Below, one piece after another: positions 20,141 to 32,153 of a stretch of 64,000 nucleotides of DNA. The notes below the pieces were generated by a model. That model had not been told where the DNA came from. It did no database searches and saw only the letters and a list, made by a program, of their open reading frames with translations. A program made the translations under genes and the position numbers. The DNA comes from Dictyostelium discoideum (taxonomy: Eukaryota): contig CM000152.2 in NCBI GenBank assembly GCA_000004695.1, positions 4,320,001 through 4,384,000 of the forward strand, in the 5' to 3' direction. Each line of letters begins with the position of its first letter. The stretch's first letter is position 1.

Positions 20141-20405
20141 TTATAAACGAGGTGGTGTATTTAAATTATCATTTTGTTGATCAATTTGCGTTATTTCATT
20201 TATATTTAAACCACTTTTCTTTGCTTCAGCTAATTTACGTAAATAAATTGCATTTTGAGGACCAGTTTCATTTACTAACCATGTTAATAAACCATTTTGA
20301 TTTTGTAATAATGTCCATGGTTCATCAAATTCACTAATTTTACCTGCATCAAGTACCATAATCTTATCACTATCCACTAATTATTTTATTAAATTAAAAA
20401 AAATT

Positions 20406-20473
<68 letters not shown>

Positions 20474-28097: not shown

Positions 28098-31000
28098 ATT
28101 ATTATTTTAGACCATCATATTTAAGGGCTGGATTTAGAGCATTTGGAAAATTACAATTATTAAGTATTTTTTTATATGCAATAAGTGTTGGAATCCAATT
28201 TGTTGGACCAGAAATTTTAGGTAGAATGGTTACATTTGTAGTTGAATCAAAATTAGGAACATCCACAGAAGATCCAAATATGGGATACTATTATGCATTG
28301 ATTATGTTTGGGACTGCGATGATTGGTTCATTTTGTACATACCATGCTAATAGAATTTCATTTAGAACTGGCGATCGTGTAAGTACCCCCTTTTCTTTTT
28401 TTTTTGTTTTTTTTTTTTTATTTTTTTTTTATATTTTATTAATCATTTTTTTATTTATTTTTATTTATTTTTTAGTTAAGATCAATCATTGTTTTAGATG
28501 TTTATAAAAAAGCAATTAAATTATCAAATTCAGCAAGATCAGATACATCACCAGGCCAAATTGTAAATTTGATGAGTAATGATGCTCAAAGAATGGTTGA
28601 AGTATTTGGAATGTTTAATAATGGCGCACTTGCATTACCACAAATTATTATTTGTCTTGCATTATTATATAAAAAGATTGGTTGGCCAACATTTGTAGGA
28701 TTGGGTTTAATGTTAGCTGCAATTCCATTCAATGGAATGGCTGCAAAGAAATTAACTGAAACTAGAAAATATTTAGTCTCACTTTCAGATAGTCGTGTTA
28801 AAGCTACAAATGAAATTTTACAAGCTATTAAAATTATAAAATTATATGCATGGGAAGATAGTTTTGCTAAAAAGGTATAATATATTTTTTAAATATTAGT
28901 AAGATCATTAAAAGAAATTATAATTTTTATAATATATTTATTTATTTATTTTTTTATATTTTATTTTTTATTTTTTACTATAATGATAATGATAATAATT
29001 ATAGGTTATTGAACATCGTAATAATGAAATTAAATTATTATTTTCATATAGTCGTTATAGAACTATTTTAATTGTTATTATTAGTGCTTTACCAACTGCT
29101 GCTGCTATTTTAGTAATTTCATCATATTATGGACATGAGAAATCTTTAGATGCAAGTAGAATTTTTAGTGCACTTTCATATTTAAATTTATTAAGACTTC
29201 CATTAGGTTTCTTACCAATTATAATTGCATTGGGTATTCAAATGCAAATTGCAGGTAAAAGAGTTACTGATTTTCTATTATTACCAGAAATGAAAGATAT
29301 TCAACAAATTGATAATCCTTCATTACCAAATGGTGTTTATATGAAAAATTCAACAACAACTTGGAATAAACTTAAAGAAGATTCATTTGGTTTAAAAAAT
29401 ATTAATTTTGAAGCTACTGGAACATCATTAACAATGGTTGTTGGTTCAGTCGGATCGGGTAAATCAACATTGGTACAGGCAATGTTGGGAGAGTTAGAGA
29501 TTATTGATGGAGAAATCGGTATTAAAGGCTCAATTGCTTATGTACCTCAACAAGCATGGATTATCAATGCAACATTAAAAGAGAATATTATTTTTGGTAA
29601 AGAATTGGATGAAGAAAGGTATCAAAAAGTATTAGAAGTTTGTGCATTAAAACGTGATATTGAATTATTTCCACAAGGTGATTCAGTAGAAATTGGTGAA
29701 CGTGGTATTAACCTTTCAGGTGGTCAAAAACAAAGAGTTTCAATTGCTCGTGCAGTATATTCAGATGCAGATGTTTATATTTTAGATGATCCATTATCAG
29801 CAGTGGACTCACATGTTGGTAAACATTTATTCCATAAATGTTTTAAAGGTATTCTATCAAGTAAAACAGTTATTTTAGTAGCAAATCAATTAAATTATTT
29901 ACCATTTGCTGATAATACAGTTGTATTAAAATCAGGAGAAATCGTTGAAAGAGGTACCTATTATGAATTAATTAATTCTAAATTAGAATTTTCAAGTATT
30001 CTTGAAAAGTATGGTGTTGATGAAAATGTTATATCCAAAAAAGATGACATTGATGAAGATGAAGATGAAGATCAAGATACTATTGAAAAGGTTGAAATAG
30101 ATTTAAATAAAGATGAAAAGTCTCAACCAAAATCAAAATCATCAAATACTGACGGAACATTAATATCAGAGGAAGAAAGTGAACAAGGAGCTGTTGCGGG
30201 AAAGGTATATTGGAAATATGTCACAGCTGGTGGTGGTTTATTATTCTTGGTTTCAATGATATTCTTTTTATTAGAAACTGGTTCAAAAACATTTTCAGAT
30301 TGGTGGTTATCACATTGGCAAACAGAGTCATCAGAAAGAATGGAATCAATATTACTAGGTGAGGAACCTACTGGTTTAACTGATGATCAAAATTTAGGTA
30401 TTTATATTGGTCTTGGTATGGCAGCTGTTTTCATTTCAGTTTGTAAGAATTTTATTTATTATGAATATTCAGTGTATGCATCACGTGCAATTCATCATGA
30501 GTTGTTCAATGCATTATTAAAGAAACCAATGTATTTCTTTGACCAAACACCAATTGGTAGAATTATAAATCGTTTCACTAGAGATTTAGATGGTATTGAT
30601 AATTTAATCGCAACTTCAATATCAACATTTTTAACTTTAATGTTAACTGTAATTGCAACTATTATCCTTGTTTCAATCATTGTTCCATTCCTTTTAATTC
30701 CATTGGCACCAATTAGTATAATATTCTTCTTTTTACAATACTTTTATAGATATACATCAAGAGGTTTACAAAGAATTGAAGCTATTACACGTTCACCAAT
30801 TTTCAATCATTTCTCTGAAACTTTAAATGGTGTAGTTTCAATTAGAGCATATAAAAAACAACAAGAGAATATATTAATAAATCAAAAACGTTTAGATGAT
30901 AATAATAATTGTTATTTAACACTACAAGCAATGAATAGATGGTTAGGTTTGCGTTTAGATTTTTTAGCAAATTTAATTACATTTTTTGCTTGTATTTTCA

Positions 31001-32153
31001 TTACAATCGATAAGGATACAATTAGTCCTGCAAATGTTGGTTTAGCATTAGGTTATGCACTTTCATTAACTGGTAATTTAAATTATGCAGCACTTCAAGC
31101 AGCCGATACTGAAACTAAAATGAATTCAGTTGAACGTATTTCACAATATATTAGAGGAGCAGTTGAAGCACCACAAATTATTGATGATTGTCGTCCATCA
31201 CCAGATTGGCCAATAAATGGGTCAATTAAATTTGATAATTTAGTAATGCGTTATCGTGAAGGATTAGATCCAGTATTAAAAGGTATAACATGTGAAATTA
31301 AAGCAAAAGAAAAGATTGGTATTGTAGGCCGTACTGGTGCAGGTAAAAGTTCAATCGTTTTAGCATTGTTCCGTTTAATTGAAGCTTCAGAAGGTTCAAT
31401 TTCAATTGATGGTGAAAATATTGCCAAATTCGGATTAAAAGATTTACGTAGAAATTTAGCAATCATTCCACAAGATCCAGTATTATTCAGTGGTACACTT
31501 CGTGAAAATTTAGATCCATTCAATGAACGTTCTGAAGAGGATTTATTTTCAACAATTGAAGATATTCAAATGAGTGCAGTTGTTAAATCTTTAGAGGGTG
31601 GTTTAGACTCAAAAGTAACAGAAAATGGTGAAAACTTTTCAGTTGGACAAAGACAATTAATTGTATTAGCTCGTGCATTATTAAGAAAACCAAAGATTTT
31701 AGTTTTAGACGAAGCAACTGCCTCTGTCGATGGTCAAAGTGATTCATTAATTCAAGCAACAATTCGTAATAAGTTTAGTAATTGTACAATTTTAACAATT
31801 GCTCATAGACTTAATACAATTAGTAAGTTTTTATTTTTGTTTAAAATTCTTATTTTTTATTTTTTAAAAATTCAAATATTAACTATTAATTAAAATAATT
31901 AGTGGATAGTGATAGGATTATGGTACTTGATGCAGGTAAAATTAGTGAATTTGATGAACCATGGACATTATTACAAAATCAAAATGGTTTATTAACATGG
32001 TTAGTAGATGAAACTGGTCCTCAAAATGCAATTTATTTACGTAAATTAGCTGAAGCAAAGAAAAATGGTATAGATATAAATGAAATTATGCCAATTGATA
32101 ATGAAACAACTCCAAAGGATAATATCAATACACCACCACCACCACCTCAATAA
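27748..32153 (+). CDS. ABC transporter C-family (MRP-type, short form), copy B, 5 exons, 1334 aa
   Basis: Exons: 27748-28016, 28111-28378, 28476-28874, 29005-31822, 31903-32153, with GTAAGT/GTATAA donors and AG acceptors. Phases 2/0/0/1 all reconstitute conserved sequence, for example ..AHRLNTI|[13 protein letters not shown] across the last intron. The domain content matches copy A. The upstream in-frame Met codons of track ORF 27568-28020 lie in poly-A DNA and are not used. Confidence 0.85.

Follow-up and report, generated by a model that had tools for sequence, protein, structure and literature searches.

Gene conversion between closely linked copies that lie in inverted orientation on either side of a spacer is familiar from the human RHD and RHCE genes, which lie tail-to-tail, and from the arms of the Y-chromosome palindromes, which are homogenised along their whole length (>99.9%). 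Here we describe a comparable pair of ABC transporter genes, abcC10 and abcC12, from Dictyostelium discoideum AX4, in a window of 64,000 nucleotides (nt) that comprises positions 4,320,001 to 4,384,000 of the forward strand of contig CM000152.2 (GenBank assembly GCA_000004695.1); coordinates are those of the window unless another sequence is named. The pair resembles the two human systems in the opposite orientation of its copies, in a short spacer that holds an unrelated gene, and in a non-reciprocal exchange in cis that leads to hybrid or homogenised segments. It differs from RHD/RHCE in being head-to-head, from the Y palindromes in being homogenised in fixed patches only, and from both in that its orientation is most likely derived from a tandem state and that conversion is independent of orientation.

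Interlocus (ectopic) gene conversion with selection-limited tracts has also been described for long-lasting mammalian gene pairs (PMC3924837, PMC2720389). As in the pairs described there, and as in concerted evolution in the sense of Teshima and Innan, the paralogues considered here are in stretches closer to each other within one species than are the orthologues of different species, homogenised segments take turns with diverged ones, conversion has outlasted speciation, and divergent segments persist against it. The present case differs in that it concerns a dictyostelid ABCC pair, that about a dozen resistant blocks are stable over three species and eight genomes, and that conversion can be followed in genomes with and without an inversion by which the relative orientation of the genes was changed. 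We found no published account of conversion or rearrangement at this locus in the literature searched, which excludes the primary description of the ABC family (Anjard & Loomis, 2002).

The identity of the genome as AX4 and of both genes was established by exact-sequence look-up. On the minus strand, abcC12 (Q54U44 / XP_640932) occupies 20141..24573 and encodes 1323 amino acids in five exons (24573-24290, 24172-23905, 23831-23433, 23274-20490 and 20376-20141); on the plus strand, abcC10 (Q8ST87 / XP_640934) occupies 27748..32153 and encodes 1334 amino acids, also in five exons (27748-28016, 28111-28378, 28476-28874, 29005-31822 and 31903-32153). Models with GT-AG introns reproduce exactly the exon coordinates that had been proposed for the two genes in a preliminary description made from the sequence of the window. 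The start codons are separated by 3,174 bp in a head-to-head layout, and the proteins are 86.8% identical end to end. A mechanical search resolves the inverted repeat of about 4.4 kb into seven collinear arms with 84-96% complementarity, in a region that is very AT-rich throughout (GC 0.10-0.33). Homology between the genes is confined essentially to the interval from ATG to stop; pairwise alignment finds no alignable similarity between their promoters or 3' flanks, and a third abcC copy is absent from the 64-kb window as searched by tblastn.

The preliminary description took the pair for a mosaic of identical and diverged tracts, with uniform divergence as the contrary expectation, and pairwise alignment bears it out. 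Divergence is not uniform: identity swings between 100% and about 65% per 100 alignment columns. The longest identical run measures 435 nt (21219-20785 = 31093-31527), followed by runs of 213, 174 and 86 nt that together form a 475-nt stretch with two mismatches (22777-22303 = 29502-29976), by one of 141 nt in exon 1, and by three of 110, 98 and 91 nt near the 3' end. Shuffling of the 373 differences over the 3948 exon columns gave longest runs that averaged 65 nt and in 5000 permutations never exceeded 132. The identical antisense open reading frames noted earlier (20789-21061 and 31251-31523) do map onto each other, which is a trivial consequence of their falling within the 435-nt run. The 11-codon indel reported in the acidic linker is present in the alignment. 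The divergence ascribed to exon 3 is there in part, the exon being itself a mosaic and not uniformly diverged.

The near-identical tracts largely coincide with the conserved ATP-binding domains, and since two sequences alone cannot separate conversion from constraint, orthologues were fetched. Protein search and contig look-ups gave both genes from each of seven further genomes: two wild 'D. discoideum' (FIR and FIW), two cryptic species entered as 'D. cf. discoideum' (FIY and FIZ), two strains of D. citrinum (citV and citU) and one D. dimigraforme, so that the alignment comprises 16 genes from eight genomes. All seven are Nanopore assemblies polished with Racon and Medaka, and the AX4 reference is Sanger-based. 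Over the whole gene, orthologues share 90-91% amino acid identity and paralogues 86%, which places the duplication before these species. For any two genomes we scored as species sites those at which both paralogues share one base in the first genome and another in the second, and as paralogue sites those at which orthology is kept; a crossed pattern arises only by homoplasy and provides an internal control.

At exon sites, the quartets formed by AX4 and D. citrinum contain 190 species sites and 143 paralogue sites. These two classes lie in alternating blocks, with 41 runs where 164 are expected (z = -13.8; 0/10,000 permutations), and the runs test gives z = -10 to -14, again with 0/10,000 permutations, in 27 of 28 genome pairs, the exception being the near-identical FIR and FIW. 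An account without conversion would invoke purifying selection or a low mutation rate in the nucleotide-binding domains (NBDs), relaxed constraint elsewhere and independent divergence of the copies; it suits the position of the near-identical tracts, could not have been excluded from the two AX4 sequences, and is compatible with the longest run in AX4 counted on synonymous differences only (150, against a permuted mean of 61 and maximum of 152), which is merely suggestive of conversion. Comparison between genomes makes this account vanishingly improbable. The synonymous divergence (dS) of orthologues is as high in the blocks that are homogenised between the paralogues (0.36-0.39) as in those that resist homogenisation (0.34-0.48), whereas that of paralogues is 0.04-0.07 in the former and 0.62-0.70 in the latter, a gap of about tenfold. 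At synonymous third positions at which all four codons specify the same residue, AX4 and D. citrinum show 134 species sites against 5 paralogue sites, and the homoplasy control amounts to 7 crossed sites against the 190 species sites. Because orthologue dS is equal in both classes of block, neither constraint on silent sites nor differences in mutation rate explain the mosaic; silent sites in the identical tracts evolve at a normal rate, with both copies changing together, which establishes concerted evolution by gene conversion. We put the probability that gene conversion between abcC10 and abcC12 is the cause of the mosaic at about 90%, and the proposal of ongoing conversion made from the AX4 pair alone is thus upheld by orthologues from seven other genomes.

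Blocks that are alike between paralogues within a genome and different between species make up about two-thirds of the coding sequence. In most windows of 90 nt they contain 0-1 paralogue differences, rising to as many as 12 at the edges of tracts, depending on the strain, against 2-18 orthologue differences. A neighbour-joining tree of the resistant blocks cleanly separates the abcC10 genes from the abcC12 genes, each clade mirroring the species tree, whereas in the corresponding tree of the homogenised blocks each abcC10 groups with the abcC12 of its own genome, with bootstrap values of 86-100% for FIY, FIZ, citV, citU and D. dimigraforme; among these, FIY (93%), FIZ (99%) and citU (86%) had no part in the definition of the blocks. 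The AX4 genes are also sisters in this tree, with a bootstrap value of only 47%. GC-biased gene conversion was considered and rejected, as the GC content of third codon positions does not differ between homogenised (0.115-0.133) and resistant blocks (0.100-0.135).

Near-identical paralogues 3 kb apart are a classic trap for assembly, and with seven of the eight genomes being polished Nanopore assemblies it might be supposed that paralogous reads were collapsed or cross-polished to give falsely identical tracts. This is hardly credible here, given that the same tracts are identical in the Sanger-based AX4 sequence and in seven independent long-read assemblies, and that they carry lineage-specific substitutions common to both copies. 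The tracts (715 nt or less) are moreover far shorter than long reads, which span both genes, and the diverged blocks between them are assembled consistently.

Conversion is shown to be ongoing and independent in each lineage, and to occur within species as well, since both the extents of the tracts and the species sites differ between strains. Species sites occur between all species. They also separate AX4 from the other genomes of the discoideum clade (36 for FIR, 41 for FIW, 50 for FIY and 70 for FIZ), and 52 of them distinguish one D. citrinum strain from the other. The near-identity of the NBD1 region from about 29240 to 29976 is complete in FIZ, D. citrinum and D. dimigraforme and partial in AX4, FIR, FIW and FIY, with a shorter extent in AX4 and more interruptions in both FIR and FIW. 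A block map that is alike in all species is what might be expected had it been laid down once, by one large conversion or partial re-duplication in their common ancestor, prior to the split into species, with independent divergence afterwards. We regard such a single old event as extremely improbable: the homogenised blocks cluster by genome and not by paralogue, down to individual strains, species sites are found even among D. discoideum strains and between those of D. citrinum, and the sharing of intron sequence described below is strain-specific.

In AX4 the exon ends that flank introns 1 and 4 are identical between the copies and the interiors of these introns differ strongly. Identical exon sequence around introns 1, 2 and 4, together with introns that can barely be aligned, could indicate that conversion was templated by spliced RNA or cDNA and not by the paralogous DNA. 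The first 7-10 intron nucleotides nevertheless lie within identical runs in AX4, and intron 4 of FIY abcC10 is a complete abcC12-type intron, poly(A) included. In citV and citU, likewise, intron 4 has a 5' part that is specific to the strain and common to both of its paralogues, and so has intron 1 in FIY and FIZ. Intron sequence has therefore been co-converted, and conversion acts at the DNA level; a cDNA template is highly improbable. The abcC introns are microsatellite-like and AT-rich, with lengths that vary several-fold even between orthologues, and rapid slippage together with the termination of tracts at heterology suffices to explain the AX4 pattern.

The preliminary description had copy A, here abcC12, acquiring an intron that is essentially an A66 homopolymer, and on both points the data say otherwise. 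The homopolymer counts as A59 (T59 on the plus strand; 20408..20466, minus strand) within the 113-nt intron 4 of abcC12 (20377-20489), and intron 4 is present at the identical position in both paralogues in all eight genomes. A poly(A) run is found in abcC12 intron 4 throughout the discoideum clade, with A59 in AX4 against A22-27 in the four others (Nanopore lengths, and so approximate). The run is an expanded mononucleotide repeat of variable length, not an acquired intron.

The map of homogenised and resistant blocks is shown to be stable across three species and eight genomes. Profiles of paralogue differences correlate at r = 0.88-0.97 among the genomes, and all 14 resistant blocks tested (>20 nt) keep orthology in every genome. 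The 435-nt tract already mentioned runs from the Walker A motif to the Q-loop of NBD2 (31093..31527, plus strand; abcC12 21219-20785) and contains in every genome 0-4 paralogue differences per 90 nt, against 2-10 orthologue differences between species. The end of the first transmembrane domain (TMD1) and all of NBD1 form another homogenised block (29268..29982, plus; partner 23011-22297), in which all 86 informative sites are of the species type. Two further blocks span introns: one from the NBD2 signature and Walker B motifs to near the C-terminus, across intron 4 (31609..32076, plus; partner 20703-20203), and one that begins in exon 1 past codon ~20 and crosses intron 1 into the first part of exon 2 (27810..28141, plus; partner 24496-24142). 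Smaller homogenised blocks lie on the plus strand at 28231-28330, 28363-28565, 28649-28718, 28841-29024, 30171-30402, 30504-30549 and 30735-30961.

One sharply bounded paralogue-specific block, with identical sequence on either side, falls in the NBD2 helical subdomain, after the Q-loop and ahead of the signature motif (31528..31606, plus; partner 20784-20706); it holds 32 differences in 79 nt, and the three species conserve both of its 26-residue peptides, that of the abcC10 type and that of the abcC12 type. A second lies in TMD1, at about residues 327-377 with hydrophobic segments at 332-350 and 372-390 (29048..29197, plus; partner 23231-23082). The others, on the plus strand, are 27751-27793, 28156-28194, 28338-28360, 28574-28629, 28768-28829, 29992-30150 (the acidic linker), 30424-30481, 30592-30721, 30968-31091 and 32089-32149. 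In residues of abcC10 the resistant blocks correspond to 2-16, 105-118, 166-173, 212-231, 277-297, 327-377, 642-694 (acidic linker), 786-805, 842-885, 967-1008, 1154-1180 and 1314-1334, and most of them overlap or abut hydrophobic TMD segments. Protein identity between abcC10 and abcC12 is 56% in the resistant blocks and 97% in the homogenised ones. The distance between the two genes in the resistant blocks is about equal to their distance from the D. purpureum homologues or from a third ABCC paralogue of D. citrinum, which suggests that the pair is old, although the figure of 56% cannot date the duplication, the blocks having been chosen for their difference. Alignment of six blocks with these outgroups led us to reject a third paralogue as the donor of diverged patches such as that in NBD2, because each gene's version is conserved in its orthologues and matches neither the third D. 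citrinum paralogue nor the D. purpureum genes. The third paralogue itself (P0014) lies at an unlinked locus (L011, 10001-14476) and is 74% identical to abcC12; the protein search showed no close D. discoideum counterpart, the next D. discoideum match being 50% identical.

As to what maintains the resistant blocks, we infer that they are kept by selection for functional differences, reinforced by divergence that blocks the formation of heteroduplex. Heterology might do this by itself, through blocked heteroduplex extension and rejection by mismatch repair and with no functional selection. The blocks are 20-40% diverged at the nucleotide level and have sharp edges, which is enough to stop recombination, and they include the low-complexity acidic linker and both termini, for which functional specialisation is doubtful. 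Set against this, orthologues from three species conserve the gene-specific residues of the transmembrane helices and of the NBD2 patch; the ratio of non-synonymous to synonymous divergence (dN/dS) in the resistant blocks, 0.42 between paralogues, is as low as 0.13-0.22 between orthologues; and blocks of only 23-40 nt survive between long homogenised tracts, where a tract from either side could cross them. We consider heterology by itself the less likely explanation, albeit one to be taken seriously.

The order of genes around the pair differs among the genomes. Both strains of D. citrinum and D. dimigraforme have Ras(+), tRNA-Phe(+), an Integrase_H2C2 gene(+), abcC10(+), abcC12(+) and an acetyltransferase gene(-), with abcC10 and abcC12 in tandem on one strand and 650-750 bp apart. 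AX4, FIR, FIW, FIY and FIZ, read in the same orientation, have Ras(+), tRNA-Phe(+), abcC10(-), the Integrase_H2C2 gene(-), abcC12(+) and the acetyltransferase gene(-), and the two layouts differ by one inversion of about 7 kb that comprises the Integrase_H2C2 gene and abcC10. Collinearity with D. citrinum (blastn) places the first AX4 junction in the spacer, at 25100-25507; the second, where the abcC10 3' flank is joined to the tRNA-Phe/Ras side, lies in the interval 32169..33444, which has no D. citrinum counterpart. In D. citrinum the breakpoints fall within about 440 bp downstream of tRNA-Phe and within the abcC10-abcC12 intergenic DNA. The intergenic DNA, AT-rich and not alignable, limits the resolution of the breakpoints to about 400 bp and 1.3 kb. 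A search for inverted repeats at the breakpoints, both at the AX4 junctions and at the D. citrinum and D. dimigraforme sites, returned only chance-level matches of 18 nt or less. The preliminary description had called the pair an inverted duplication; with the genes in tandem in three genomes, the head-to-head layout is better attributed to a later inversion. The ancestral layout was most likely tandem, abcC10 followed by abcC12, with the inversion fixed in the D. discoideum lineage, and tandem is ancestral by parsimony under either topology of the species tree. Paralogue dS in the homogenised blocks is 0.036 in D. citrinum and 0.071 in D. dimigraforme, where the genes are in tandem, and 0.060 in AX4, where they are inverted; conversion is thus equally strong in both arrangements, and orientation is irrelevant to it.

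Several points weigh against this interpretation of the pair and its history. The inversion is polarised by a three-species tree of weak resolution, in which the resistant blocks place D. dimigraforme nearer to D. discoideum (34-63% bootstrap), and by a statement that D. citrinum is the sister species of D. discoideum, made in a preprint that apparently describes these assemblies, the link being our inference. Comparison with D. purpureum, suggested earlier as a test of synteny, supplies no outgroup for gene order, since the nearest homologues there, two single genes with 69% identity, sit on separate scaffolds among unrelated neighbours. In the Nanopore assemblies, the lengths of homopolymers and a small number of individual base calls may be wrong. 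The blocks were defined on the same alignment (with AX4, citV and D. dimigraforme), so that block-class statistics are partly circular for those genomes; they are not for FIR, FIW, FIY, FIZ and citU, which were not used in the definition. The data do not separate selection from a self-reinforcing heterology barrier as the cause of the resistant blocks, and no functional data on either transporter were found in the literature searched for D. discoideum abcC10 and abcC12.

Taken together, the genes are best explained as old, closely linked paralogues under segmental concerted evolution. Repair of double-strand breaks by homologous recombination would repeatedly copy short stretches from one gene to the other, without crossing over; the stretches range from tens to several hundred nucleotides, and introns can be part of them. 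Exon 1, all of NBD1, the greater part of NBD2 and several TMD segments, in total about two-thirds of the coding sequence, in this way remain near-identical within a genome while drifting between species. About a dozen blocks are never homogenised; they comprise both termini, portions of the transmembrane helices, the acidic linker and a single patch of the NBD2 helical subdomain. The head-to-head layout is secondary and most likely arose by the inversion of about 7 kb, which broke the DNA between abcC10 and abcC12 and that immediately downstream of tRNA-Phe, and conversion continued regardless of orientation.

Recombination between the inverted copies could also invert the DNA between them, as had been pointed out for the spacer. 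This is mechanistically possible, and no flipped spacer and no chimeric gene is found in the discoideum-clade assemblies: in AX4, FIR, FIW, FIY and FIZ alike the Integrase_H2C2 gene shares the strand of the Ras-side gene, so that a fixed or majority flip is absent from this sample, and the resistant blocks (14 blocks >20 nt) reveal no chimera among the genes, although consensus assemblies would miss rare somatic flips. That the near-identical inverted tracts, of up to 715 nt, support rare reciprocal crossovers that flip the 3.2-kb spacer together with the promoters and the 5' (TMD1) halves of the genes, and so form a reversible low-frequency switch, seems to us very unlikely. If true, such flips would yield chimeric transporters within a clonal population of amoebae that would be invisible to consensus assemblies.

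The spacer (24574..27747; 3,174 bp, compared with D. citrinum by blastn) lies between the 5' ends of the two genes and contains the abcC12 upstream region (24574 to about 25099), the junction interval, the Integrase_H2C2 gene and the abcC10 upstream region. The Integrase_H2C2 gene (25792..26996, plus) encodes about 310 amino acids with a long acidic tail, and H2C2 is the only domain found (PF17921, E = 1.9e-8). All eight genomes have it beside abcC10, with which it was inverted, and it looks like a domesticated fragment of a retroelement integrase. Just 5' of the abcC12 ATG, an interval on the minus strand (24587-24690) with the form GTAAGT...TTTTAG resembles an intron in the 5' untranslated region. 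A 49-nt element at 24788-24836, about 215-260 nt upstream of the same ATG, is 98% identical to D. citrinum (locus L008, 14879-14927) amid intergenic DNA that is otherwise AT-rich and unalignable; its ends are complementary (ATACCA...TGGTAT), and a small RNA or a regulatory element may lie here.

On the other side of abcC10, a Dictyostelium Class I RNA gene (32682-32741, minus; Rfam RF01414, 50.8 bits against a gathering threshold of 41.5) sits between the abcC10 stop codon and tRNA-Phe, inside the junction interval that lacks a D. citrinum counterpart. The tRNA-Phe(GAA) gene (33450-33523, minus) stays on the Ras side in all eight genomes, with the breakpoint a few hundred bp downstream; the approximately 540 bp directly downstream of it (32900-33440) are moderately GC-rich in AX4 and absent from D. 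citrinum. DNA flanking tRNA genes is a known target zone for retroelements in Dictyostelium. In FIZ (assembly GCA_054859235.1; L005 1-9900 and L004 1-7500) about 17 kb of extra DNA lies between abcC10 and the Integrase_H2C2 gene, so that the two abcC genes are about 20.8 kb apart. Two IPT/tgr-like open reading frames with a mutual identity of 87-97% lie in it, together with a further gene, and none of these is found in the AX4 window or at the other loci; a retrotransposon was rejected as its identity given these reading frames.

The genomes entered as D. discoideum are themselves quite divergent. AX4 differs from FIR and FIW by 2-3.7% mismatches in every gene of a 24-kb region (13375-41689), with dS of about 0.09-0.12 in the abcC genes. 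Species-wide nucleotide diversity in D. discoideum is given as 0.003 (bioRxiv 10.1101/2025.10.22.684067), about tenfold lower, so that either the strains belong to a divergent lineage or the region represents a deep haplotype. Raised diversity peculiar to the abcC genes is ruled out, as all flanking genes differ between AX4 and FIR to the same extent (2-3.7%).

By domain composition both proteins are clearly short MRP-type ABCC transporters. Pfam reports two stretches each of ABC_membrane (E = 2e-71) and ABC_tran (E = 4e-50) for abcC10, and precomputed database annotation gives the identical set for abcC12; the domain order is TMD1-NBD1-linker-TMD2-NBD2 with no TMD0, that of an ABCC full transporter. 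This organisation is shared with other short MRP-type proteins such as human ABCC4/MRP4, with the cores of ABCC1, ABCC2 and ABCC3, and with that of yeast Ycf1. The match of abcC10 to ABCC4/MRP4 structures is end to end (residues 27-1301 of the query with 9-1288 of 1325; E about 1e-269). Its top matches in the Protein Data Bank (PDB) are ABCC2, MRP1, ABCC3, ABCC4, ABCC5, Ycf1, SUR and CFTR, all of subfamily C, with ABCC2 and MRP1 scoring best, and the database names of the two proteins are 'ABC transporter C family member 12' and '10'. Identity to the metazoan MRP/ABCC-type proteins retrieved in a protein-database search is about 40%. ATP-dependent export of organic anions or conjugates is the function that family membership would predict for both.

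The process described here is classical, textbook interlocus gene conversion acting on two genes that have long been annotated; it changes no concept and will not surprise specialists. Its value lies in the detail of the record. The eight genomes provide a nucleotide-level map in which conversion is tolerated in both ATP-binding domains of an ABCC transporter and is not tolerated in specific transmembrane segments, in the linker and in one patch of the NBD2 helical subdomain, and the case shows conversion unchanged after an inversion turned tandem copies head-to-head. It also calls for caution, as whole-gene trees, dating based on dS and short-read variant calling are misleading for abcC10 and abcC12. 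With its efficient homologous recombination and easy genetics, D. discoideum offers in this pair a system that could serve to measure rates of ectopic conversion and the lengths of its tracts. For the transporters themselves, the fixed block map may mean that selection makes the two pumps share one co-evolving ATPase 'engine' and keep separate substrate paths, and it provides a ready hypothesis for which residues carry the functional difference between them.

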